Positions 17,503 through 54,565 of a stretch of DNA of 54,565 nt are shown piece after piece. Every line of letters begins with the position of its first letter. Position 1 is the first letter of the stretch. The stretch spans positions 1 through 54,565 of the forward strand of contig JAITVV010000075.1 in NCBI GenBank assembly GCA_031285625.1, read 5' to 3'. This stretch comes from Prevotella sp. GTDB lineage: Bacteria; Bacteroidota; Bacteroidia; Bacteroidales; Dysgonomonadaceae. The notes under the pieces are model-generated. The model was not told the DNA's origin. It ran no database searches and worked only from the letters and a program-made list of their open reading frames with translations. The translations under genes and the position numbers were made by a program.

Positions 17503-19545
17503 ATGATAAACAATAGAGAACTAAGCTGGTTAACGTTCAATGAAAGAGTATTACAGGAAGCACAGGATAAAAGTGTGCCTCTGATGCAACGGTTGCGTTT
17601 TCTCGGTATTTTCTCTAATAATCAGGATGAATTTATAAAGGTTCGTATTGCCAATATTGTTCGCTTAAGCCAGATAAAAGGGAAGAAAATCCCCCTTTTT
17701 ACCGGAAATTATACAGCTAAGGAATTGCTCCCTCTGATTAACTCTCAGGTATCGGAAGGTCAGAAAAAATTTGTACAAACATACACTGATGTTCTGTCAG
17801 AAATGGAAAGCCATGGTATTTTTGTTATTAATGAGAAGCAACTGAATAAAAAGCAGAAACAATTTTGCCATGAGTATTTTACATCAATAGTGAGCCCGCT
17901 ACTGGTTCCGCTTATTATCCGTAAATCCACTCAGATGCCTTTCTTGAGGGATAACAATATATATCATGCTGTAAAGATGTCTTCGGGAAGTAATAATGCA
18001 GATTCCCGATATGCAATTATACAAATCCCTGTTACTAGCTCATGTCCCCGCTTTGTGGTGCTGCCGTCTGCAAACAACAGAAATGAAATAATCTTTCTGG
18101 ACGATATTATACGCTTTTGTCTGGATGAGATATTTTTTATGTTCAATTATAAAAAAATATCTGCTTATACATTCAAACTGATGCGTGATGCACAGCTTAC
18201 CATTGATGACGATATATCGAAAAGTCTTGTTGAAAAAATGGAGACAGGTTTACAAAACCGTTTACATGGGCAACCGGTACGATTGATTTATGACCGTGAA
18301 ATGCCTGAAGACTTATTAAGTATGATCGCTTCAAAACTCCGGCTGAAAGGTCGTGGTGAACTTGATGCAGGGGGAAGGTATCATCTTATGCGCGATCTGA
18401 TGAAATTCCCGAAAATACGCCCCGATTTGGAGAGTTCCAGTCCTGAGCCATTACAACATCCAGACATAAAGCCCTTTTCCAGCATACTGAAGGTTATTGG
18501 CAGGAAAGATATATTACTCAATTATCCTTATCATACATTTAATCACTTTATTGATTTTCTTCGCGAAGCTGCTATCGATCCCAAAGTTGAGAGTATTTAT
18601 ATCACACTGTATCGTACAGCAGAACGATCAAAGGTTATTAATGCTCTGATCAATGCAGCAAAGAATGGTAAGACAGTTGTTGTATTGATGGAATTATTAG
18701 CACGATTTGATGAGGAACAAAATGTTGAATATTCCGAAATACTACAAAAGGAAGGGGTAAAAGTGATACATGGGGTTGCCGGATTGAAAGTGCATAGTAA
18801 ACTTGTGTTAATACAGCGTAAGAACAAAGATTATGTATATATTGGTACAGGGAACTTCAATGAAACCACTGCCCAGATATATGGAGACTTCGGTCTGTTT
18901 ACTTCCAATCCACAAATTGCTGCTGATGCAGTAACAGTGTTTGATTTTCTGATAAATACTCATAAGCATTTTTTGTGCAAGCAACTGATGGTTTCCCCTT
19001 ACTATATGAGAAACCAGTTTGTAACTTTAATCAAGAAAGAAATTAAGAATGCACAGAGTGGTAAAAGGGCGTATATATTTGCAAAACTCAATAGCCTTAC
19101 AGATGAAGAGATGATAAGGCTACTTTATAAAGCCAGCCAGGCAGGAGTGGAGATCCGGCTTATAGTACGCGGCTCATGCTGTCTACAGCCACAGGTAAAA
19201 AAGCTAAGTGACAACATACGCGTCATAAGTATAGTTGACCGGTATTTGGAGCATGCCCGGATGGCTATTTTTTATAACGGAGGCGACGAAAAAGTTTATA
19301 TCATGAGTGCTGACTGGATGACTCGTAATTTGGACCGTAGGGTTGAAGTCGGCGTACCTGTTTTGGATAAAAAAATAAAGGAAACTTTAAAAGATTTTTT
19401 TGATATACAGTGGGCAGATAATGAGAAGGCCAGAGATCTGACTGTTTTTGGCCGCAATGAGTATGTACCAAAAGGAGAAAACCTGCCTTGTCGTTCTCAA
19501 ACAGCTTTATATGATTTTTACAAAGGAATGATTGATACAAAATGA
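17503..19545 (+). CDS. ppk1: Polyphosphate kinase 1
   Basis: NRELSWL.FN.RVL, LARFDEE, KVHSKL (phospho-His), GTGNFN, RYLEH and SADWMTRNLDRRVE; start taken at ATG 17503. Confidence 0.96.
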   Translation: MINNRELSWLTFNERVLQEAQDKSVPLMQRLRFLGIFSNNQDEFIKVRIANIVRLSQIKGKKIPLFTGNYTAKELLPLINSQVSEGQKKFVQTYTDVLSEMESHGIFVINEKQLNKKQKQFCHEYFTSIVSPLLVPLIIRKSTQMPFLRDNNIYHAVKMSSGSNNADSRYAIIQIPVTSSCPRFVVLPSANNRNEIIFLDDIIRFCLDEIFFMFNYKKISAYTFKLMRDAQLTIDDDISKSLVEKMETGLQNRLHGQPVRLIYDREMPEDLLSMIASKLRLKGRGELDAGGRYHLMRDLMKFPKIRPDLESSSPEPLQHPDIKPFSSILKVIGRKDILLNYPYHTFNHFIDFLREAAIDPKVESIYITLYRTAERSKVINALINAAKNGKTVVVLMELLARFDEEQNVEYSEILQKEGVKVIHGVAGLKVHSKLVLIQRKNKDYVYIGTGNFNETTAQIYGDFGLFTSNPQIAADAVTVFDFLINTHKHFLCKQLMVSPYYMRNQFVTLIKKEIKNAQSGKRAYIFAKLNSLTDEEMIRLLYKASQAGVEIRLIVRGSCCLQPQVKKLSDNIRVISIVDRYLEHARMAIFYNGGDEKVYIMSADWMTRNLDRRVEVGVPVLDKKIKETLKDFFDIQWADNEKARDLTVFGRNEYVPKGENLPCRSQTALYDFYKGMIDTK

Positions 19546-20438
19546 ATACAGATATTTTTGCGGCAATAGATATTGGCTCTAATGCTATTCGTTTGCTTAT
19601 AAACAACATAGAAGAGAGTGACAATGTCCCTGACTTTAAAAAAGTGGCGTATTTGCGCGTTCCTATCCGTTTGGGAGATGATGTGTTTACTAAAGGGAGG
19701 ATAAGTGAGGATAAAAAGTACAGATTGATTCATGCTATGCAAGGTTTTTCACATATAATGAAAGCTTATTGTGTAATGGATTTCCGGGCTTGTGCTACAA
19801 GTGCAATGCGTGATGCCGAGAACGGCAAGGACATTGTGAAAGCGATACGCAATGGTAGTGGAATCAATATTGATATAATAACAGGCCGTGAAGAAGCTGA
19901 AATGATCTATGAAGCCGGCGAGCTGGACAGGCTGATGGATAAAAAGCTTAACTATCTGTATGTTGATGTTGGAGGTGGTAGTACAGAGATTGTAGTATAT
20001 AGTAATCAACAAAAGATTACATCCAACTCATTCCAGTTAGGTACTGTACGTATGCTTGTAGATGCAGTTCAGGAGAAAGAGGAAAAGCGGTTTAAAGCAT
20101 GGCTTAAGGAAATATATGAAGCCCATGGGGCCCTGAATATAATTGCATCGGGAGGTAATATAAACAAAATACATAAGGTGCTTGAAAAGCGTGAACGGGA
20201 ACCGCTTAATTATAGCGAACTGAAAGCTTTTTATGATACTCTCAAAGAGATGAGCTATGAAGAACGGGTACAAAAATTTAAACTGAACACTTATCGAGCG
20301 GATGTTATTGTGCCGGCATTAAAGATATTTTTGACAATTAGTAAGATTTGTAAGGTGAACCAAATCTATGTTCCCAAAATTGGTCTTGCCGATGGTATTA
20401 TTCATCATTTGTATTATGAAAGGAAGATTAAACTTTAA
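19542..20438 (+). CDS. ppx: Exopolyphosphatase (Ppx/GppA family)
   Basis: AIDIGSNA, ATSAMRDA, EEA and DVGGGSTE; overlaps the ppk1 stop. Confidence 0.94.
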   Translation: MNTDIFAAIDIGSNAIRLLINNIEESDNVPDFKKVAYLRVPIRLGDDVFTKGRISEDKKYRLIHAMQGFSHIMKAYCVMDFRACATSAMRDAENGKDIVKAIRNGSGINIDIITGREEAEMIYEAGELDRLMDKKLNYLYVDVGGGSTEIVVYSNQQKITSNSFQLGTVRMLVDAVQEKEEKRFKAWLKEIYEAHGALNIIASGGNINKIHKVLEKREREPLNYSELKAFYDTLKEMSYEERVQKFKLNTYRADVIVPALKIFLTISKICKVNQIYVPKIGLADGIIHHLYYERKIKL

Positions 20439-34693: not shown

Positions 34694-35608
34694 TTATTTA
34701 CTTATCGAAAGTTCGGGAGCAGCCTCCTGATAGAAGTGGGTAAGGTAAAGGTCTTTTATAATTCCATCGGCTACACCAATAATAGGGGTCTCGATTACTA
34801 AAGCGCGTGCCAGTTTCATCACCCTTAGATAGATTTCTATGGCAGGTAAAATTACCTCTGCCCTGTTTCGATTTATTTTCAGATTAACAAGCCTCTCTTC
34901 ATAGCTCATCTTTTTCAATTTAGCGGAGAAACTTACCAATTCTTCTCTTCTAATGCGCCCACATCGGCGAAGCAGCGAATCCAGTTTGTTTATATTTCCT
35001 CCTGAACCTATAAGTGACACTTTAACAAAATCTTTACTGTACTCCGTAATCCAGTTTTTCATTCTTTCCCATTCACCCTTTTCTTCGTCAGGAGACAAGG
35101 TACGCAAAGTTCCCAGTTTAAATGCTTCAGTAGCTATTTCTTTATTTTTATGGAATATGATCAGTTCAGTATTGCCTCCCCCTACATCTGTATAGATATA
35201 AGCACGGTTTTCTTCCAGTAGCTCATCTATATTATTAGCTAAGATAAAACGTGCTTCTTCTTTACAATCGATCACGTCTATATCTATTCCCGATTTTGCT
35301 GTAACATACTTCAATACATCCTCTGAATTGAGAGCCTCCCTTATAGCCGATGTGGCACATACACGCCATAGTTCAACATCATTTACCTGAATGAGGCCAC
35401 GAAAAGATTGCATTAAAATGGCAAGCTTTTCTTTTTTTTGTTCACTGATATAACCTGTAGAAAAAGTATCTTCCCCTAATTTTAAAGGAATGCGAACTAA
35501 TGAGTCTTTTTTGAAAACCGCACGTCCGTTATAATCAAGCACATCTGTAATTAACAGGCGTACAGAATTTGATCCAATATCGATTGCTCCTAAACGTCTT
35601 ACATTCAT
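34694..35608 (-). CDS. Second Ppx/GppA family phosphatase
   Basis: AIDIGSNS, ATSAIREA, EEA and DVGGGNTE; ATG 35608 below a -7 box at 35624-35631. Confidence 0.9.
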   Translation of the reverse strand: MNVRRLGAIDIGSNSVRLLITDVLDYNGRAVFKKDSLVRIPLKLGEDTFSTGYISEQKKEKLAILMQSFRGLIQVNDVELWRVCATSAIREALNSEDVLKYVTAKSGIDIDVIDCKEEARFILANNIDELLEENRAYIYTDVGGGNTELIIFHKNKEIATEAFKLGTLRTLSPDEEKGEWERMKNWITEYSKDFVKVSLIGSGGNINKLDSLLRRCGRIRREELVSFSAKLKKMSYEERLVNLKINRNRAEVILPAIEIYLRVMKLARALVIETPIIGVADGIIKDLYLTHFYQEAAPELSISK

Positions 35609-35849
35609 ATTTATTTTTTGTACCAAAAATATATGAAGAAGATTACAATCTAATTACTAAATAACTGAGAATAGGTTAAGTTTTTACAACAAAAAACATA
35701 TCCTTCGCTGTTTAACAATTTATAATTACAAGAAACCGACTTCTCATTTATTCCGATTATCTTTGTCGGCAATTAAGGTCTCAGACCTGTTTACTAAATA
35801 TTTACAATCAGTCATTGAACAAAATCAGAGCTTTACAGATTATATATAC

Positions 35850-37574
35850 ATGAAAAAATATTGGCATATACTAAAAAGATACAAGATAAGCTTGCTTATA
35901 AGCCCTTTCCTTGTCCTTATCACTGTGTTGTGCGAAACAATACAGCCCTGGTTTATGGCAAAGATCGTTGATGATGGTGTAATGCATCAGGACTTATCCG
36001 TAATCACCGAAATTGGCGCCTATATGGTGGGGGTATCTATTCTGGGATTAATAATCAGTATTATTAATGTGTATGTATCTTCGCGAGCGGCAATCGGATT
36101 TGGGACTGATCTTAGAAGCACTTTGTTTGAGAAAATACAACAGTTGTCATTTACCGAGATTGATAAGTTTAATTCAGCTTCACTTATTACCAGATTAACA
36201 AATGATATTACACGTATGCAGCAGGTAATACTTATGGGTATGCGGTTGATGTTGCGGTCTCCATTGATGCTGGTAATGGCTGTCTTTTTTGTCATTAAGA
36301 TTAATACCGATCTCGCTCTGATTATGATTGGGGCCATACCAGTATTAGGTATCAGTGTTTTTCTCATTTTACGAAAAGGGTTTCCTCTCTTTATGAAAGT
36401 ACAACAAAAACTGGATCAGTTGAATGCTGTTGTAAGAGAAAATCTTATTAACATACGTGTCGTAAAATCTTTTGTAAGGGAAGATTTTGAAACAAAGAAG
36501 TTTGAAAAGAGTAGTGAAGAATTACGGGATATGGTTATTAATGCATCCAATGTGGTAGTTTCTATATTCCCGGTTATGCAGCTCATTATGAATGTTTCGG
36601 TTATCGTCATTCTTTGGGTAGGTGGAGGAAAAGTAATGACAGGCGAGTTAAAGGTAGGTGAACTTATCTCTTTTGTCAATTACCTGATGCAAATACTCAT
36701 GGCGCTGATGTTGTTGTCAATGGTTATTATGAATGTGGCCAGAGCTTCAGCTTCATCAGAACGCATCCTGGAAGTCTTGAATACAGAACCGTCCTTAGAG
36801 AATACAACCGAAGGTATCGCTAACACGCATAAAATAAACAAAGGTGAAGTCATTTTCCGCAAAGTTTTCTTCCGCTATAGTGGCGGCGAAAATGATGTGC
36901 TGAAAGACATTAACTTTCATATACATCAGGGTGAGACAATAGCAGTAGTAGGTGCTACAGGCGCAGCAAAAACATCTATGCTTCAGTTGATACCCCGTCT
37001 TTATGATACTACAGCGGGTGAAGTTCTTATTGATGGTGTAAATGTAAAGGATTATAATCTGGATGAACTTCATGCCGAAATAAGAATGGTTTTGCAAAAG
37101 AACGAATTATTTACAGGTACAATTATTGAAAATCTGCGGTGGGGTAAGCCGGACGCTACCATCGAGGAAGTTGAGGAAGCTACAAAGGCTGCACAGGCCC
37201 ATGATTTCATTATGTCATTTACGGATGGATATAATACACTCCGTCTTCAAGAACTATGACCCTGTCTGCCGATTGCATAGTATTGATACGCTGGGTAATA
37301 ATAAAGACCGTAGTATCATGTAAAAGCTGACTCAGATTGTGCCGAATCTTTTGCTCCGTATCCGAATCTACCGCACTGGTACTGTCGTCAAGAATTAATA
37401 TTTTAGGCTTGCGTAGTAATGCCCGTGCAATACAGATACGTTGTTTTTGTCCCCCGGAAACATTGATGCCCCCGCGACCCAGCAGAGATCGATGCAATTG
37501 GAAAACCGGATGAACTGATAGAAAAGTCGAAAGTTTATCAGGAAATTTATAACTCACAGCAAATAGCTTTTTAA
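35850..37574 (+). pseudogene. Heterodimeric ABC exporter subunit A (TMD+NBD), disrupted by an internal inversion
   Basis: TMD and Walker A on +; signature, Walker B and switch on - within 37239-37485; C-terminal EIDAIGKPDELIEKSKVYQEIYNSQQIAF on + again. Re-inverting restores a 574-aa ORF. Confidence 0.92.
37239..37485 (-). other. 247-bp inverted DNA segment inside the ABC gene
   Basis: Minus strand encodes LLGRGGINVSGGQKQR...ILDDSTSAVD...ITQR...ADRVIVLEDG; ends are CT and AG. Confidence 0.93.
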
Positions 37575-37577
37575 GAT

Positions 37578-39350
37578 ATGGCACACGGAGATCAATATAA
37601 ACATAGCGGAAAAGCGGTGGAAGGCAAAAAAACCTTCATGAGACTGATGTCATATCTATCGAAAGATAAAAAACTATTATTGATCATTGGTTTTCTCATT
37701 ATTATCAGTATTGTGGCCAACTTACTGGGCTCATATATGATACGTCCGATCATCAATGATTATATTATACCCGGTAACTTCAACGGACTTGTAAATATTC
37801 TGCTTGTTTTGGCCGGTATATATCTGATAGGGGTAGCCGCTGTATATATTCAATACAGGCTGCTGAATAAAATCGGGCAACGCGCTGTAACCCGTATGCG
37901 TACTGATCTGTTCCGGAAGATGGAAAAACTCCCTATCAAATATTTTGACACGCATCAGCATGGAGACCTGATGAGCCGTTATACAAATGATATAGATCAG
38001 GTAAGTAACACCCTTACAGACAGCCTATCTGATATGTTGTCAAGTGCGCTTATGCTGATAGGTATTTTCGTTCTTATGATATATATAAGTCCTATACTTA
38101 CGTTGGTGACGCTTATTACCATACCTCTTATGTTCCTTAGTGCAAAGACAATTGTAAAACGAAGCAAGAAATACTTCAAAGAGCAACAGAATACACTGGG
38201 AGAAACAAACGGATATATTGAAGAAATGATCAGCGGGCAAAAGGTTATCAAAGTATTCGGTCATGAAAAGAAAGTCGAATCAGACTTTGATATACTAAAT
38301 CAGAGCCTGAAAGATAAATCCGAGAAAGCACAGTTCTATTCGGGTATGATGATGCCTGTCATGCAAAATCTGAATACACTGAATTATGTCATTATTACTA
38401 TTGTAGGAGGTCTATTAGCTATTTTCCGTGGATTTGATGTTGGGGGATTGGCAGCCTTTCTTCAATATTCACAACAATTCGGACGACCAATCAACGAACT
38501 GGCCAGTCTCTATAATAGTATCCAGGCAGCTATAGCAGGTGCGGAACGTATTTTCCAAGTTATTGACGAAGCTCCGGAACAGGAAGATGGACCAGAGGCT
38601 ATAGCCGTAAAAGATGTGAAAGGCGATCTGGAAATGAAAGATGTTTATTTCGGATATAAACCCGAGAAACTTATTCTTAAAGGGGTTTCGCTACATGCGA
38701 CACCTGGTACTAAGATTGCACTGGTAGGAGAAACAGGTGCCGGAAAAACGACAATACTAAACATGCTTCCGCGTTTTTTTGATATCAAATCGGGTGAAAT
38801 AAACATAGATGGAGTATCTATACAAAATATAAAACGTGATAACCTGCGACAATCAATGGCTATCGTATTACAAGATACTCATCTGTTTACCGGAACCGTA
38901 TGTGAAAATATCCGATTCGGAAGACTTGATGCTACTGACGAAGAGGTAATAGAAGCTGCTAAACTAACCGCTGCGCATTCCTTCATAAAACGTCTGCCAA
39001 AAGGATATCATACTCAACTGGAGAATGACGGGGCAAATCTCAGCCAGGGACAACGCCAATTATTAAACATAGCCCGGGCGGCAGTAGCCGATCCTTCTAT
39101 TTTGCTTTTGGATGAAGCTACCAGCAATATCGATACCCGTAGTGAGCTATTGATTCAAAGAGGGTTGGATAAGTTGATGGAAGGACGTACAAGCCTTATT
39201 ATAGCACACAGGTTATCTACTGTTCGTAATGCTGATAGGATTCTGGTACTCGACCATGGCCAGATTATAGAACAAGGCACTCACAAAGAACTTCTTGCCC
39301 TCAAAGGAAAATACTATTCGTTATACGAAGAGCAATTTGAGGAGTTTTAA
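37578..39350 (+). CDS. Heterodimeric ABC exporter subunit B
   Basis: TMD; GETGAGKTT, LSQGQRQ, LLDEATS and IAHRLST motifs. Confidence 0.95.
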   Translation: MAHGDQYKHSGKAVEGKKTFMRLMSYLSKDKKLLLIIGFLIIISIVANLLGSYMIRPIINDYIIPGNFNGLVNILLVLAGIYLIGVAAVYIQYRLLNKIGQRAVTRMRTDLFRKMEKLPIKYFDTHQHGDLMSRYTNDIDQVSNTLTDSLSDMLSSALMLIGIFVLMIYISPILTLVTLITIPLMFLSAKTIVKRSKKYFKEQQNTLGETNGYIEEMISGQKVIKVFGHEKKVESDFDILNQSLKDKSEKAQFYSGMMMPVMQNLNTLNYVIITIVGGLLAIFRGFDVGGLAAFLQYSQQFGRPINELASLYNSIQAAIAGAERIFQVIDEAPEQEDGPEAIAVKDVKGDLEMKDVYFGYKPEKLILKGVSLHATPGTKIALVGETGAGKTTILNMLPRFFDIKSGEINIDGVSIQNIKRDNLRQSMAIVLQDTHLFTGTVCENIRFGRLDATDEEVIEAAKLTAAHSFIKRLPKGYHTQLENDGANLSQGQRQLLNIARAAVADPSILLLDEATSNIDTRSELLIQRGLDKLMEGRTSLIIAHRLSTVRNADRILVLDHGQIIEQGTHKELLALKGKYYSLYEEQFEEF

Positions 39351-39420
39351 GTTTTAATCCTTGTAATTTCTCCAGATAATAGATTGGCAGAAAAGAAGTT
39401 TTTTTATCATATTATCATAA

Positions 39421-39452
39421 AAAATAGCTGCAATTATTATTGCAGCTATTTT
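39421..39452. terminator. Bidirectional terminator between convergent ABC and ppdK genes
   Basis: AAAATAGCTGCAAT/ATTGCAGCTATTTT perfect stem. Confidence 0.85.
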
Positions 39453-39470
39453 CATTATCTAATACAAAAA

Positions 39471-42206
39471 TTAGTCTTTAAATCTGATTGCTGATTGAGC
39501 AGCAGCCAGACGTGCGATTGGCACACGGTATGGAGAACAACTCACATAGTTGAGACCAACACAGTGGCAGAATTCAATAGAAGAAGGTTCACCTCCATGC
39601 TCACCGCAAATACCGACTTTCATATTCGGACGAGTCTGACGGCCTTTCGTTACTGCCGATTTAATCAGTTCGCCAACACCTTCACGGTCTATCGACTGGA
39701 ATGGGTCTACTTTCAGGATGCCTTTTTCCAGATAGATAGGAAGGAATTTACCAACATCGTCACGCGAGAACCCGAATGTCATTTGCGTTAAGTCATTTGT
39801 TCCTAAAGAGAAGAACTCCGCAGATTCGGCCAGCTTGTCAGCGGTAATAGTTGCGCGTGGTGTTTCTACCATAGTACCCACTTCGTAATGTATGCTATCA
39901 CCTGTTTCTGCAAATACTTTTTCTGCTGTAGCACGGATGATATTTTCCTGATATTTCATTTCTGTCAATGATGTAGTCAATGGAACCATGATTTCAGGAT
40001 GAGTTTCGATACCTTTCTTCTTCAGAGCCAGGGCAGCCTGTAAGATCGCGCGTGTCTGCATTTCGGTAATCTCAGGATAAGTGTTTGCAAGGCGGCAACC
40101 ACGGTGCCCCAACATCGGATTCACTTCATGCAGAGCAGATATCTTTTGTTTAACCTTACTTTCTGAAATTTGCATAGCATCCACCATTTCTTCTATACCC
40201 TTAATATCATGAGGCAGGAATTCGTGCAAAGGCGGGTCTAACAGACGAACAGTAACAGGCAGGCCTTTCATGGCAATAAATATACCTTCAAAGTCTTTTT
40301 GCTGCAAAGGAAGAAGTTTTTTCAATGCTTCTTTGCGTTCCTCTGTTGTATCAGCCAGAATCATTTCGCGCATAGCGATAATTTTATCCCCTTCAAAGAA
40401 CATGTGTTCTGTACGGCAGAGTCCTATTCCGATAGCCCCAAAGTTGCGGGCAACATCAGCATCATGCGGAGTATCAGCATTCGCTCTTACTTTCAGGCGG
40501 GTATATTTATCTGTTAGCTTCATCATTTCGGCAAAGTCAGCACTAAGTTCTGCATCTTTAGTACCTACTTTTCCGTCATATACTTCCCCGGTAGTACCAT
40601 TTATAGAAATCCAGTCTCCTTCGCGGTATTCACGATCGCCTACCATTAGTGAACGTCTCTTATAGTTGATGCGCAAGTCTGATACACCCGATACGCAGCA
40701 CTTACCCATACCACGGGCAACTACGGCAGCATGCGATGTCATACCTCCACGCGCAGTAAGAATACCTTCGGCTACTGCCATACCTTTGAGGTCTTCGGCA
40801 GAAGTTTCAATTCTGACAAGGATAACTTTCTTATTTTTATGGTGGCTTGTCTGCCATTCAGCATCATCGGCGAAGAATACGATTTGTCCGGATGCAGCTC
40901 CCGGAGATGCAGGAAGCCCTTTAGCTATAACGGTAGCTTCTTTCAGCGCTTTCGGTTCGAATATAGGGTGCAACAGCTCATCTATCTTTTCAGGTTCCAC
41001 ACGTAGCAAAGCTTCTTCTTCGGATATTAATCCTTCTTTTAACATATCCATTGCAATCTTTACGGCTGCAGCACCTGTGCGTTTTCCGCTACGTGTCTGT
41101 AGCAACCATAGTTTGCTGTCCTGTATAGTGAACTCGAGGTCTTGCATATCTTTGTAGTGAAGCTCGAGTTTCTTCTGTATTTCATTCAGGCTCTTGAATG
41201 TTTCAGGCATCACTTCTTCCAGAGACATACCTCTTTGTTTTCTTTCTTCTTCGGTAACACCCTGTTGCCTTGCCCAGTCATATGAGCCTTGCAGTGTGAT
41301 TTGTTGTGGCGTACGTGTTCCGGCAACTACATCTTCTCCCTGCGCATTGATAAGGAATTCGCCATTGAATACAGGCTCTCCTGTTGCTGCATTACGCGTA
41401 AAGGCAACTCCCGAACCGGAATTATCATTCATATTACCAAATACCATTGCCTGTACATTTACGGCTGTTCCCCATTCGGCAGGAATATTATTCAGTTTGC
41501 GGTAGAAGATAGCACGATCATTCATCCAGCTTTCAAATACAGCCATAATGGCGTTCCAAAGCTGAGTCCAGGGGTCGGTTGGGAAATCCTGCCCTGTTTT
41601 TTCTTTTATTATTTTCTTGAAACGTACAACAAGTTCCTGCAGATCTTCTGTTGTAAATTCAGCGTCTTGTTTTATCCCTTTTTTTTCTTTCAGTTCATCT
41701 ATGATTTCTTCAAATAGATCTTCATCGTCTTTTTCAACAGGCTTCAATCCCATTACAACGTCTCCGTACATCTGGATAAAACGGCGGTATGAATCCCATG
41801 CAAACCGGGGAGTCCCGCTCTTGCGTGCAATGGCTTCTACAGCTTTTTCGTTCAATCCCAGGTTAAGGATAGTATCCATCATACCTGGCATGGAAGCTCT
41901 TGCTCCCGAACGAACTGAAACTAAAAGTGGATTTTCTTCGTCTCCGAATTTTGGGCCGCCCACTACGCGTTCTATATGTTGTATTGCATCTTTTACTTCG
42001 TTTGCCAGAAGTTTAATAACATTTTCTTTTCCTTCTGTGTAAAACAAGTTACAAACTTCTGTAGTAATCGTAAATCCAGGGGGCACCGGTATGCCCATTA
42101 GGCTCATTTCAGCTAAGTTAGCTCCTTTTCCTCCTAATAATTCCTTCATTTTCGCGTTTCCCTCGGTAACTGTACCGCCAAAGACATAAACTGACTTTTC
42201 ACTCAT
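39471..42206 (-). CDS. ppdK: Pyruvate, phosphate dikinase
   Basis: LGGKGANL, SVRSGA.SMPGMMDT, GGMTSHAAVVAR, GLCRTEHMF, GTNDLTQ and CGEHGG motifs. Confidence 0.99.
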   Translation of the reverse strand: MSEKSVYVFGGTVTEGNAKMKELLGGKGANLAEMSLMGIPVPPGFTITTEVCNLFYTEGKENVIKLLANEVKDAIQHIERVVGGPKFGDEENPLLVSVRSGARASMPGMMDTILNLGLNEKAVEAIARKSGTPRFAWDSYRRFIQMYGDVVMGLKPVEKDDEDLFEEIIDELKEKKGIKQDAEFTTEDLQELVVRFKKIIKEKTGQDFPTDPWTQLWNAIMAVFESWMNDRAIFYRKLNNIPAEWGTAVNVQAMVFGNMNDNSGSGVAFTRNAATGEPVFNGEFLINAQGEDVVAGTRTPQQITLQGSYDWARQQGVTEEERKQRGMSLEEVMPETFKSLNEIQKKLELHYKDMQDLEFTIQDSKLWLLQTRSGKRTGAAAVKIAMDMLKEGLISEEEALLRVEPEKIDELLHPIFEPKALKEATVIAKGLPASPGAASGQIVFFADDAEWQTSHHKNKKVILVRIETSAEDLKGMAVAEGILTARGGMTSHAAVVARGMGKCCVSGVSDLRINYKRRSLMVGDREYREGDWISINGTTGEVYDGKVGTKDAELSADFAEMMKLTDKYTRLKVRANADTPHDADVARNFGAIGIGLCRTEHMFFEGDKIIAMREMILADTTEERKEALKKLLPLQQKDFEGIFIAMKGLPVTVRLLDPPLHEFLPHDIKGIEEMVDAMQISESKVKQKISALHEVNPMLGHRGCRLANTYPEITEMQTRAILQAALALKKKGIETHPEIMVPLTTSLTEMKYQENIIRATAEKVFAETGDSIHYEVGTMVETPRATITADKLAESAEFFSLGTNDLTQMTFGFSRDDVGKFLPIYLEKGILKVDPFQSIDREGVGELIKSAVTKGRQTRPNMKVGICGEHGGEPSSIEFCHCVGLNYVSCSPYRVPIARLAAAQSAIRFKD

Positions 42207-44883: not shown

Positions 44884-44958
44884 CGGGATGTAGCGCAGTC
44901 CGGTTAGCGCACCTGCTTTGGGAGCAGGGGGTCCCAGGTTCGAATCCTGGTATCCCGA
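44884..44958 (+). tRNA. tRNA-Pro(TGG)
   Basis: Acceptor CGGGATG/TATCCCG, anticodon arm CCTGC-TTTGGGA-GCAGG, T arm CCAGG-TTCGAAT-CCTGG; CCA not encoded. Confidence 0.98.
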
Positions 44959-45006: not shown

Positions 45007-45120
45007 ATGGGCGTGACGAATCCGTGACGTTTCAGAATGTTAAATAATACAAACACCCTACAATCTACACCTCTATTTTACCTAATTTTCAGCTTTAGAT
45101 TTAATTGATTTTGGTTGAAT

Positions 45121-46098
45121 ATGACAGCAGAAGAAAAGGCTTATTTACTAAAATGGAATATCGAGATTGAGAATGCTCCATTTGAAGATGCTCATTTTAT
45201 TGAAATAATGAAGAAATATAAGGGCTTAAAAGATGATGATATAGATATTCTATTTCGATACGGATATAATATTATTTCGGGAGTGTTTAAAAATTGTATT
45301 TCCTTGTCAAAGGATGGTATTTACCATAAATGCAAAGAGTATTATAGCTTGTTGAGATATTTAGACGAAAATCCCAAGACAAATATTAAATTCACCCCTT
45401 TCAATTCCAGCCGAGAAGAAAAGCTATTTCCATATAATACTATGATTAACGAAACTTTATACGATGGGATAAAGTTAATATTGGAAAATGAGATAATCCG
45501 ATTTTTTATGATTGGATTTAGTGAGAGTTACGTTAAAAAATTGTATTCCAAAGAAAAATACTCTTCAATCCCAGATATTCAGTACTTAAAAGAGAAATAT
45601 CCAAAGCAAGATGATTTTGTTATAAAATTTAGAGAAGACATAGAATATTTGTCTTCCGATTTAGAATTTGTTAAGTCCATGCTCCAAGTCTTAGAGTTGG
45701 ATATTGACGATTTAGAAAGAGAACCAAAAATGTCTAATAGATTTGCAGACACATATAATGTGATATATACTTTGATTGACCCACAAAAAGCATCAAGAAT
45801 TTGTCATTTACAGATTCAAGAAATTGCATTATTCTTGATGATAGATGAATTTCTTAGTTCCGATGTTCAATCCATACAAGAAATAACATTACAAGATTGG
45901 CAATGTAAAGTTATTTTTGAAGTGTTGTCTTTTTTCAAATTGTATAGCTTTTCCAAGAATAATATTGCTAAATCTGTGAGAAGACGATTCAACCATTTCA
46001 AAGAACTTAAAAATATGGAAAAAGAACAAGCTATTATTGAGGAAAAGATCATTACAGTTGATAGCTATATAATTAAGAAAAGATTTTCAAAAAAATGA
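45121..46098 (+). CDS. Hypothetical protein (island)
   Basis: Long AT-rich ORF, ATG 45121, no recognised motif. Confidence 0.75.
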   Translation: MTAEEKAYLLKWNIEIENAPFEDAHFIEIMKKYKGLKDDDIDILFRYGYNIISGVFKNCISLSKDGIYHKCKEYYSLLRYLDENPKTNIKFTPFNSSREEKLFPYNTMINETLYDGIKLILENEIIRFFMIGFSESYVKKLYSKEKYSSIPDIQYLKEKYPKQDDFVIKFREDIEYLSSDLEFVKSMLQVLELDIDDLEREPKMSNRFADTYNVIYTLIDPQKASRICHLQIQEIALFLMIDEFLSSDVQSIQEITLQDWQCKVIFEVLSFFKLYSFSKNNIAKSVRRRFNHFKELKNMEKEQAIIEEKIITVDSYIIKKRFSKK

Positions 46099-49584: not shown

Positions 49585-50823
49585 ATGATTATCAACTTTA
49601 GTGTACAGAATTTTGGTTCAATTAAAGATAAACAGACTTTATCTTTTGAGGCTGACAGGTCAGAGCATTTAGAGGATTATTATATAATTCCGATTAATGG
49701 CTTGAGATTATTGAAATTGGGATTAATATATGGAGCTAATGCTTCGGGGAAAACTACAATATTGAAAGCTCTCGACTTTTTGAGTAATATCGTGCTAAAC
49801 CCTAAAGAGAAGAAAACTGATATTTTTGACTTTAATCCATTCTTATTTGATTCTGAAACGCCTAAGCAAAACACGATTTTATCTATTGAGTTCATACAGA
49901 ATTCAGTACGATATTATTATGAGATTGAGTTGAATAAAAAAGCTATTGTAAATGAGACACTTGATTTCTATAATTCACATAAAGCCAATGTTTTTAAAAG
50001 AACAACCAATTTAGAAACTCAATTTTCTGAAATAGCCTTTGGTAGCAAGATTAAAACAGATAAGGTTTTTGAGAAAACTTTAGAATCAAATACTTTATGG
50101 AATAATACTGTATTAGGAGGATTCCTTAAAACCAATATTGAGTTGAAAGAGTTAAAGGATGCAACGGATTGGTTCGCTAATCATTTAAACTCATTAATCC
50201 ATCCTAAAACACAGCTGGATACATTTGTTATAACTCAACTCAATAACTCGACTATTAAAAAAGATGATGTTATTCAAATCTTGCAAAAAGCGGATTTAAA
50301 CATATCCGATATACATATAAAAGAGGGTAATAAAAGGATTCTACTTGATTCTATGAAATCATTTCAAACTTATAACTTAGAGTTTGAGCATACATTAAAT
50401 AATGAAAAATATAATTTGCCTTTTGAATTTGAATCACAGGGAACTCAACGATATTATGGGTTTGCGGGGATATTGAGTCAAGCAATTAGAGAATCTTTTG
50501 TTTTTCTCATAGATGAACTTGAATCTTCTTTACATCCCGATTTATTTACTCATTTTCTATTATCATTCTTGGTAAATTCAAAAAACTCCCAAATTATTGC
50601 GACGACACATAATCGGGAAATATTGAATAATAAAGATATCTTCCGAAATGATGCTGTTTGGATTACTGATAAATCCGAAAATTGCGCTACTGAACTTTAT
50701 TCTCTATCTGACTTTGATACTTCGGTAATCAGAGATACTAGTAATATTTACAATGCGTACAAGATAGGTAAACTTGGCGGTATTCCTAATTTGGGAGACT
50801 ATTATATTGATATTGAAGAATGA
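49585..50823 (+). CDS. AAA_21 / RloA (AbiLi-like) ABC-type ATPase
   Basis: NFGSIKD, YGANASGKTT, ESQGTQR, IDELESSLHP, TTHN and GKLGGIP motifs. Confidence 0.92.
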   Translation: MIINFSVQNFGSIKDKQTLSFEADRSEHLEDYYIIPINGLRLLKLGLIYGANASGKTTILKALDFLSNIVLNPKEKKTDIFDFNPFLFDSETPKQNTILSIEFIQNSVRYYYEIELNKKAIVNETLDFYNSHKANVFKRTTNLETQFSEIAFGSKIKTDKVFEKTLESNTLWNNTVLGGFLKTNIELKELKDATDWFANHLNSLIHPKTQLDTFVITQLNNSTIKKDDVIQILQKADLNISDIHIKEGNKRILLDSMKSFQTYNLEFEHTLNNEKYNLPFEFESQGTQRYYGFAGILSQAIRESFVFLIDELESSLHPDLFTHFLLSFLVNSKNSQIIATTHNREILNNKDIFRNDAVWITDKSENCATELYSLSDFDTSVIRDTSNIYNAYKIGKLGGIPNLGDYYIDIEE

Positions 50824-51467
50824 GACAGAATAGAAGAATCCCCATACAAGTAAAACCTAAATACGCAGTTGTTGTAGACGGTGAGACAGAATTTTGGTAT
50901 ATACAAATGCTGAAACGGAACGAAAGGCTTATCAGTGTTGATTTAAAACCCGAAATTCCTCAAAGAAAAAAAATATCAGAGCAATATTCAAAAGTCGTTG
51001 ACCTATCAAAAGACTATGATAAAGTCTATTGGATTATTGATTTTGATGTTATTAATAAAGAAACCCGTGAGGCAAAGAGAGGAACAAAAACCGCATTACA
51101 AGAGCTAAAAGAGTACTGGGATAATATTGAGAAAAACCATAAAAATATTGTTGTTGTCATTGTAAATAATCCTTGTTTTGAATATTGGTTATTATTACAT
51201 TTTGAAGCAACATCTAAGTTTTATAACTCTCATGATGAATTAATTAAACAATTAAAGAAACATCTTTCGGATTATGAGAAGTCGCAAACTTATTATACAA
51301 AACAAAATAGAGATATTTATTTGCGTCTTACCTCAAAATTAGCTGATGCAATTTCTAATGCAAAAAGATTAACCGAATTCGATTTTGAGAATCCCAGTCG
51401 AGGTTTAAGCCAAATGCACTTGCTTTTTGAAGATATAGGAATAAGTCCAACAAAAGACGGAAAATAA
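50820..51467 (+). CDS. RloB (AbiLii-like) TOPRIM-fold protein
   Basis: VVDGETE..Y, IIDFD, NNPCFEYWLLLHF and ENPS motifs; ATGA overlap with the ATPase. Confidence 0.92.
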   Translation: MRQNRRIPIQVKPKYAVVVDGETEFWYIQMLKRNERLISVDLKPEIPQRKKISEQYSKVVDLSKDYDKVYWIIDFDVINKETREAKRGTKTALQELKEYWDNIEKNHKNIVVVIVNNPCFEYWLLLHFEATSKFYNSHDELIKQLKKHLSDYEKSQTYYTKQNRDIYLRLTSKLADAISNAKRLTEFDFENPSRGLSQMHLLFEDIGISPTKDGK

Positions 51468-53062: not shown

Positions 53063-53266
53063 AAGCTGTTTATTTTGTAGTTAATACTTACTGATTGTTT
53101 ATTCACTATTTCACAATAGCTATTCACTTAACCACAAAAAGAAGACTCTAAGTTTGCAGAAGCAAGATAAGAGATCGGAAATTTATCTTAAAAATGCCAA
53201 GCGAGGCGAATAAATACCTCTGTATCTTATCACAATAGAATATCGGTCTTATTACCTTTGTCGTAT

Positions 53267-53420
53267 AAAGGGAAAGACAGATAGGTGGAGAGAGGAAACC
53301 TGTAAGAAGCAAGCACTTGAGGCTACCCCACGTAACGGCCTCTCTCCACCAAGCTGCAAAACTCCGATAGAATATTAAGGCCGCGAGCCTATTTAGAGTT
53401 TAGAGTCAAAAACAGCGTTT
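53267..53420 (+). ncRNA. Putative IS110 bridge/guide RNA
   Basis: -7 box TACCTTTG at 53253-53260; 12-bp stem GGTGGAGAGAGG/CCTCTCTCCACC enclosing a large loop; second stem AAAACTC/GAGTTTT with inner AGGC/GCCT; loops match the right junction. Confidence 0.65.
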
Positions 53421-53449
53421 ATCCGTCTTAAAACAAACACAACAAAGTT

Positions 53450-54526
53450 ATGAAAAAGTTATTCATTGGCATCGATTTTTCAAAGGAGAAGCTCGATGTG
53501 ACGATTATCCTTGCATGCGGAATGAAGGAGATTGGTTCCAGGGAATATGGAAGTTTTCCTAATGACACCAAAGGCTATCGCAAGCTCATGGGGTGGGTTA
53601 AGACCAACGCATGGGATACAAACCCTGAAGAATGGCTGTTCTGCGGAGAAGACACCGGTTCATGCAGTATCGGCCTAAGCAAATGGCTTTATGGCAGAGG
53701 CTGCGACACCTGGATTGAGAACGCCTATGCCATTAAACACAGTAGTGGAATCCAACGTGTCAAGAACGACAAGGCAGACTCAGCTGCTATTGCTGAATAT
53801 GCCTGGCGGTATCAGGACAAGGCTATAACCTTTGAACCATTAAGCGATTCCTTGTTTCAACTACGAGAGGTTTTCCTGTATCGTCATAAACTGGTTCAGC
53901 AGAGAGTAGCCATGGAGGTACGAAAGATGGACAAATCCAACACCGGAAAGTGCAAAGCCCTATCGTTTATAAATCGTAAGAGCAAGCATCTTATCACAGA
54001 GATAAACAAATCCATCAAGGAATGTGACAAGATGATTGATGCGATAATAGATGCAGACGAAGAACTAAAGGAGAATTATGCCATTATAACCTCAATCAAA
54101 GGCGTAGCACGGCAGAATGCAACTTGTATGATAATATACACCAATAACTTTAAGAAATTTAACGGTAATCCTCGAAAAATTGCCTGTTATTATGGTGTCG
54201 CTCCCTTTGGTAAACAATCCGGTACAAGCATTAACACACCGGCTCGTACAAGCCACTTTGCAAACAAACTTATCAAGTCTTTATTGGGGCAGGCTGCCCA
54301 TATCGCAAAGATATTTAATCCTGAAATTAAGGAATACTATCAACGGCTGATAAGTAAGGGAAAGAAACCGCAAGTAGCTCTAAACAATGTCAAGAATAAG
54401 CTAATCCGAATAATTGTGGCTCTGGTTAGGAAAAAAGTACCGTATGATCCATACACGTACAAGTTTTATGCATCCCGCATACAAGAGAGGACAACTGAGA
54501 ATAATAAACAGTTAATTTATTGTTAA
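53450..54526 (+). CDS. IS110 family DEDD recombinase/transposase
   Basis: GIDFSK (D), GEDTG (E), KNDKADS (DD), SIKGV, YYGVAP and QSGTS (catalytic Ser). Confidence 0.96.
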   Translation: MKKLFIGIDFSKEKLDVTIILACGMKEIGSREYGSFPNDTKGYRKLMGWVKTNAWDTNPEEWLFCGEDTGSCSIGLSKWLYGRGCDTWIENAYAIKHSSGIQRVKNDKADSAAIAEYAWRYQDKAITFEPLSDSLFQLREVFLYRHKLVQQRVAMEVRKMDKSNTGKCKALSFINRKSKHLITEINKSIKECDKMIDAIIDADEELKENYAIITSIKGVARQNATCMIIYTNNFKKFNGNPRKIACYYGVAPFGKQSGTSINTPARTSHFANKLIKSLLGQAAHIAKIFNPEIKEYYQRLISKGKKPQVALNNVKNKLIRIIVALVRKKVPYDPYTYKFYASRIQERTTENNKQLIYC

Positions 54527-54565
54527 ATCAAATAAAACATTAGGATATTAGCATAGAATACGTGG

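Follow-up and report, generated by a model that had tools for sequence, protein, structure and literature searches.

Two adjacent half-transporter genes, A and B, span positions 35850-39350 of the window, the whole stretch of 54,565 nt that was analysed, which is contig C20 of a draft genome (96 contigs, 4.84 Mb, N50 103 kb, 94% complete, 3.85% estimated contamination). Each gene encodes both a transmembrane and an ATPase domain, the organisation of a heterodimeric exporter, and the best PDB matches are 3qf4_A (TM287, 8.7e-112) for A and 3qf4_B (TM288, 1.9e-162) for B. Gene B is intact and its translation contains the consensus ATPase motifs GETGAGKTT, LSQGQ, LLLDEATS and IAHRLS. The coding sequence of gene A is divided into three pieces, the middle one lying on the opposite strand (Table 1). 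The + strand ORF, which starts at 35850 or alternatively at a TTG at 35763, carries in this left piece the Walker A motif GATGAAKTS and the Q-loop region, matching Pfam ABC_membrane (3.4e-46) and positions 1-96 of the 137 positions of the ABC_tran model. The minus strand of the middle piece encodes the VSGGQ signature (VSGGQKQR), a degenerate Walker B motif (ILILDD, then S), the D-loop and a degenerate H-loop (ITQR). The reverse complement of 37239-37485 is stop-free and reads LLGRGGINVSGGQKQR...ILILDDSTSAVD...FIITQRINT...VLEDG, ILILDDSTSAVD being encoded on this strand along with VSGGQKQR and ITQR. The + frame is taken up again from 37488 as IDAIGKP...QQIAF and terminates at a TAA (37572-37574), the ATG of gene B (37578) following 3 nt further on.

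Table 1. Positions of the exporter genes, the inversion junctions and the IS110-family element in the window
Feature	Position	Strand	Remarks
Subunit-A left piece, codons 1-463	35850..37238	+	ORF; transmembrane domain and first part of ATPase domain
CT at left junction	37239..37240		inverted microhomology with AG
Flipped 247-bp piece	37239..37485	-	minus-strand frame without stop; ABC_tran model positions 106-137
Premature TGA made by the inversion	37257..37259	+	after ...FTDGYNT, 6 codons beyond the left junction
AG at right junction	37484..37485		partner of CT
Gene A right piece	37486..37574	+	last 2 bases of split Glu codon, then 28 C-terminal codons
Subunit-B gene, intact	37578..39350	+	590 aa; Pfam ABC_membrane 2.6e-62, ABC_tran 2.8e-29
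IS110-family element, complete, at contig end	53147-54559		3 or more genomic copies; leader 53147-53449
IS110 transposase	53450-54526		Pfam DEDD_Tnp_IS110 and Transposase_20
Left target guide-like segment	53303-53311		TAAGAAGCA
Right target guide-like segment	53328-53333		CCACGT
Left donor guide-like segment	53367-53375		ATAGAATAT
Right donor guide-like segment	53393-53399		TTAGAGT

Read from the translations, the pair combines one degenerate ATP site (A) with one consensus site (B), which is the TM287/288 arrangement. The residues concerned are the catalytic Glu, absent after ILILDD in A and present as LLLDE in B, and the H-loop His, replaced in ITQR of A and retained in IAHR of B. Adjacent half-transporter genes with one degenerate ATP site are likewise found in TM287/TM288 of Thermotoga maritima (3qf4) and in EfrCD (7ocy), the difference being that subunit A is broken in the window strain. 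The PDB records name TM287/288 only as an ABC transporter, and the drug exporter of the preliminary description of this DNA is an assumption. Scanning 35500-39500 for promoters and terminators gave a result at chance level, with 17 found and 15.2 expected. A Ppx/GppA-family phosphatase gene (34694-35626) immediately precedes the broken exporter operon and has a paralogue 14 kb away on the opposite strand (19542-20438).

The inverted segment and its junctions

Computational flipping of 37239-37485 restores a frame of 574 codons in gene A, and all three pieces of the gene remain open, with no further stop or frameshift observed. Since any flip with an equal (left+right) mod 3 also opens the frame, as about a third of nearby junction pairs do, an open frame alone does not fix the position of the junctions, which were therefore placed by comparison with relatives. 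Compared with L020, a metagenome contig of the same species, the junctions fall between 37238 and 37239 and between 37485 and 37486, with 0 bases gained or lost. The inversion is reciprocal and base-conserving, with a microhomology of 2 bp. This microhomology, CT at the left junction and AG at the right, is the sole inverted one present and leaves a small ambiguity, 37241-37483 being an equally valid placement of the flipped piece. Inverted microhomology of at least 2 bp is expected by chance, on our calculation, in ∼16% of random inversions, and the CT/AG pair is therefore weak evidence for anything. No inverted repeats with one arm at each junction were detected among the 25 longest of 34 pairs (seed 6), and comparison of the junction strings revealed no motif common to both sites. 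Counted on the site strings, the two sites match each other around the core at 3/12 positions to the left and 4/12 to the right, and dyad symmetry is absent at either site. As a separate consequence for annotation, the inversion gives rise to a minus-strand ORF (37219-37584; 121 codons, starting with GTG) that is spurious.

The preliminary description had placed a base-precise intragenic inversion of 247 bp at 37239-37485, and this is borne out by the strand-split ORFs and Pfam matches as well as by the exact junctions against L020. The early stop it read after TDGYNT at 37259 corresponds to the TGA in Table 1, and ORFs and Pfam agree with its assignment of the signature, Walker B and switch motifs to the opposite strand and with a C-terminus resuming at 37486. 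The 574-codon ORF that it obtained by flipping, without any base change and ending 3 nt before gene B, was reproduced, the frame on its own being non-specific, and its statement that junction homology amounts to the 2-bp CT/AG, without long inverted repeats, holds among the 25 longest of 34 pairs.

Orientation in relatives and in the assembly

The names carried by the best protein matches assign the genome to Dysgonomonas. The orthologue comparison proposed in the preliminary description was performed with window positions 36900-37800 as the query against 34 other congeneric species (Dysgonomonas) at a cut-off of E<=1e-20. The gene was found in 23 of the 34 species, a first draw having given 17 of 24, and in 23/23 the middle piece is in the intact orientation, defined as a match of the middle 247 bases on the strand opposite to both flanks; only the window genome is flipped. 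The three pieces follow one another with neither gap nor overlap at 11 congener loci. Metagenome contigs, scanned once with a wobble-degenerate pattern situated just left of the junction, yielded seven loci. Those holding the gene were intact in 4/4 cases, L014-L016 representing other species and L020 the species of the window. L017-L019 were discarded as chance matches to the pattern, as they have no DNA or protein similarity to the gene.

L020 is the single same-species comparator, allowing at most 1642 bases to be compared, and its frame continues as far as the C-terminus of the restored gene. It differs from the window at 13 of 1551 bases, distributed as 9/939 in the left, 0/247 in the middle and 4/365 in the right part. 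Because L020 is intact, the inversion is younger than the ∼0.8% divergence separating the two sequences. As judged from these alignments, the inversion is absent from the 99%-identical L020 and from all congeners holding the gene. At the protein level, 107 of the 120 best matches are exactly 574 aa in length, the shortest among these 120 being 516 aa; no protein of the same species was found in a collection of 5.8 billion proteins, in which the best match is 89% identical. The recent one-off event considered in the preliminary description is thus supported by the low divergence from L020 (0.8% differing), the intact state of 23/23 congeners and the lack of a second lesion.

Both same-species copies carry a substitution at a near-invariant Gly, G in 36/37 orthologues in each case: a derived G412R in the window copy and a comparable change, G265D, in the intact copy of L020. 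Evidence for decay of the broken copy is thin and yields no date for the event. The window-L020 differences nearest to the inversion are at 37229, 10 bases beyond the left junction, and at 37488, 3 bases beyond the right one. One difference so near both junctions has, on a rough estimate, a chance of ∼3%, and this nearness is probably a coincidence, because the orthologues suggest that the window state at 37488 is ancestral. No DNA match to the exporter stretch (E<=1e-20) was observed in 11 of the 34 congeneric species; a third of the genus may lack the pump or possess a much diverged version of it, and gene A is possibly dispensable given these 11 species.

The orientation data bear on the proposal that the locus is a programmed, reversible ON/OFF switch, in which a repeat-free intragenic inverton would phase-vary the exporter. 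Bacteroides does possess intragenic invertons that introduce premature stops (PMC10028968). Both orientations occur within the species, in the window and in L020, and the broken copy is free of a second lesion. However, the two orientations reside in strains that differ at 13/1551 bases rather than in one clone, a single orientation was assembled without a branch or alternative contig, and the intact orientation in 23/23 congeners, in three other metagenome species and in 120/120 best proteins gives no indication of recurrent flipping. There is also no recombinase gene beside the operon. Known invertons are defined by flanking inverted repeats and were found with einverted (PMC10028968), the thiC example having an 11-nt repeat, whereas such repeats are missing here among the 25 longest of 34 pairs. 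The intragenic invertons of B. thetaiotaomicron (Chanin et al., PMC10028968) resemble the present case in belonging to the Bacteroidales, in being wholly intragenic and in having a flipped state that contains a premature stop, but they are bounded by inverted repeats and occur in both states in one culture, neither of which is seen here. A switch is accordingly the least credible of the explanations considered, with only a very slight chance of being correct, and we infer a fixed knock-out.

A further possibility, also raised in the preliminary description, is that the organism has an intact gene and that the segment was flipped in library preparation or assembly. The genome is a draft of 96 contigs with 3.85% estimated contamination, the sole same-species sequence, L020, is intact, and the flipped piece lies inside a stretch free of window-L020 differences, the nearest being those at 37229 and 37488, all of which would fit an artefact. 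The structure of the assembly argues against it. Contigs break inside the IS110 repeat and contig ends overlap by 115 nt, overlaps which point to k-mer graph assembly. Reversal in such a graph needs inverted repeats roughly as long as k or longer, and at the junctions none was present among the 25 longest of 34 pairs; as a k-mer graph cannot flip a repeat-free segment, we think, from the sequence at hand, that the inversion is real and not a graph artefact. Chimeric reads yield single junctions, not two that are reciprocal and base-exact, and the 247-bp segment has a single genomic occurrence, without a branch or alternative contig. On this structure an artefact is unlikely. Backwards placement of a shared unitig was tried as a specific form of error and rejected: the stretch that the window and L020 have in common without differences, 37230-37487, is centred differently from the flipped 37239-37485, and a backwards unitig would not give the window sequence because the two centres differ.

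Recombinases and the IS110 element

The genome contains five serine-recombinase matches, none of which is in the window, and six IS110-type matches, one of which is in the window at a distance of 16 kb from the inversion. These enzymes are candidates for a one-off, off-target event, in which a small serine recombinase or a bridge-RNA-guided IS110 recombinase, each with a crossover core of 2 bp, would have acted at a pair of inverted pseudo-sites. The exchange is reciprocal and exact, and the crossover dinucleotide is CT at both sites when one of them is read on its opposite strand, as enzymes with a 2-bp core require; such enzymes are encoded in the genome, and a CT core is used by IS621 (PMC11208160). 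Against this, a 2-bp match arises by chance in ∼16% of random inversions, and the sites are dissimilar (3/12 and 4/12) and without dyad symmetry. For an invertase of the Hin/Gin type, a crossover dinucleotide is available in CT/AG, weak as it is given the ∼16% chance, and no similar dyad-symmetric pair of half-sites was found at the junctions. No inverted repeats (E<=0.05) were detected in the 5 kb around any of the three small serine-recombinase genes. Tyrosine recombinases were rejected as candidates. Their sites contain an overlap region of 6-8 bp that is identical in both sites, and only 2 bp are common to the two junction sites. Ku (PF02735) had no match in the 94%-complete genome, and Ku-dependent end joining is therefore unlikely.

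The IS110-family element at the contig end allowed the bridge-RNA form of this idea to be examined. Its ends were defined by three left flanks (C20, C49 and C27) and two right flanks (C40 and C6), AC (53145-53146 and 54560-54561) is taken as its core, AC or GC occurring across the copies, and the conserved target implied by the guide-like words has the form AAGAAG-RC-GTGG. The 300-nt leader folds (z = -2.4) and has no match in Rfam 15, either at the gathering threshold or at E<=10, and because of this the assignment of guides rests on matches to the element's own flanks and on the leader fold. IS621 has a left guide of top-strand sense and a right guide complementary to that strand, and this element, whose core is CT, is able to invert DNA, inversion having been demonstrated experimentally (Durrant et al., PMC11208160). 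Leader segments of the window element fit this geometry (Table 1), their positions being inferred from flank matches and not from a covariance model. The guide-like segments match the element's own sites at 12/15 (target) and 15/16 (donor) positions. At the inversion sites the maximum is 7/15, obtained for one of them (J1) with the target loop, and the other site gives 3/15 and 3/16; in the null model a match of at least 7 has a probability of ∼5%, in a set of eight comparisons covering both sites and both orientations.

The cores also differ, AC in the element against CT/AG at the inversion. The IS110/IS621 bridge-RNA system (PMC11208160) thus shares with the present inversion a 2-bp core and an exact, reciprocal exchange, with an IS110 element present in the window, and differs in that the guide-like loops of this element misfit the junctions and its core is AC. 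An origin through the IS110 bridge RNA was rejected as far as it is testable, and the misfit agrees with the preliminary description, which had seen no obvious match of the junctions to the RNA loops. No left/right pair of guide-like words with at most one mismatch each was found in the flanks of the other five IS110-type loci. Combined, these observations make an off-target recombinase of either type quite improbable.

Two right flanks of the IS110 copies (C6:94870-95316, and the start of C40 and end of C6) are ∼70% alike over some 40 bases, and one of them lies ∼600 bp from a gene for a 214-aa serine recombinase. The element may target a repeated sequence belonging to another mobile element. 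In the window it terminates an apparent integrated element, which follows a tRNA gene (44884-44958) and reaches 53146. This region encodes an HTH_17 protein, a DUF5906/VapE-like protein of primase type, DUF5712 and a histidine phosphatase; its first ORF (45115-46098, 327 aa) has no Pfam match, and an AAA_21 ATPase and RloB-like pair (49585-51467) is a candidate defence pair.

A search for further inversions, likewise suggested in the preliminary description, was run as a crude screen of 4169 ORFs for short ORFs tightly sandwiched between ORFs of the opposite strand, a design blind to inversions with looser spacing or without a resulting ORF of 60 aa or more. Eight candidates were obtained, the ABC exporter being the only one with a split Pfam domain; Pfam analysis of 19 proteins from the other seven candidates revealed no split domain, and no second case emerged. 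With no repeats, no common motif, guides and core that misfit and no second inversion in this screen, the recombinase-made ON/OFF switch free of inverted repeats that had been entertained at the outset finds no footing in these data.

Origin and consequences of the inversion

The data are best accounted for by a recent, strain-specific inversion that arose without homology, by illegitimate recombination, and left a pseudogene, an explanation that we regard as probably correct. The 247-bp stretch of the TM287-like subunit gene would have been cut at two points and rejoined the opposite way, in a single event of homology-independent recombination. The closest parallels are spontaneous knock-out inversions, attributed to illegitimate recombination or to a template switch in replication between short inverted repeats, in which, like here, a few hundred bases of a conserved gene are flipped, relatives are intact, no recombinase is involved and a fresh pseudogene results. 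Two points count against this explanation: small gains or losses of bases are the commoner outcome of illegitimate events, and a serine or IS110 recombinase would leave precisely such a clean, reciprocal product around a matching 2-bp core.

Two candidate routes to illegitimate recombination can be envisaged. In route (a), the exchange would take place between two cleavage complexes of a type-II topoisomerase (gyrase). PMC11164529 (Germe et al., eLife 2024) cites work of Ikeda on illegitimate recombination through exchange of gyrase subunits or interfaces, and itself considers 'micro-deletions or -inversions' where gyrases are closely packed; as events in vivo, such micro-inversions are so far proposed only. 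Gyrase-mediated exchange resembles the present case in that homology is unneeded and every base is conserved (PMC11164529). It differs in that each junction would be predicted to pass through a heteroduplex, given the 4-nt stagger; on our own working from the junction strings, the best-placed windows here match at only 3/4 positions. With a 3/4 match, the product would therefore need mismatch correction at both junctions. In route (b), a double template switch at a replication fork would have been primed by the 2-nt CT/AG. Two nucleotides are a very weak primer for a template switch, and no short inverted repeats (∼5 bp or more) were found at the two ends; as only 2 bp are common to the ends, the repeat-primed form of the template-switch model fits poorly.

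A more general reading is that the junctions are the natural footprint of an enzyme-made, homology-free and base-conserving exchange between sites ∼250 bp apart, made either by swapping of gyrase interfaces or by a 2-bp-core recombinase acting off-target. We consider this doubtful, though a little less so than an assembly artefact. If it is true, and if many exact, repeat-free micro-inversions exist, their junction spectrum could reveal the enzyme responsible, and collected events could be mined for its junction signature.

Whichever route produced the inversion, the product would be a truncated subunit A without signature motif, Walker B, D-loop and H-loop, alongside an intact gene B. The A/B pump should be dead, because truncated A lacks all four of these elements. 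In itself, it carries little weight that a single strain of a Dysgonomonas species, itself uncultured or seldom sampled, has lost one of its ABC exporters. The locus nevertheless illustrates very cleanly how a micro-inversion that is exact to the base and free of repeats can knock out a gene. Gene callers would annotate a truncated gene together with the spurious 121-codon ORF, which would probably be labelled a small ABC ATP-binding fragment, and pseudogene finders that score only stops and frameshifts would misread such inversions.

At the other end of the window, where the contig begins, the cluster of ribosomal-protein genes and rpoA has an S4-Bacteroidia ribosomal-protein leader (492-523; Rfam RF03139, 39.2 bits) upstream of it.
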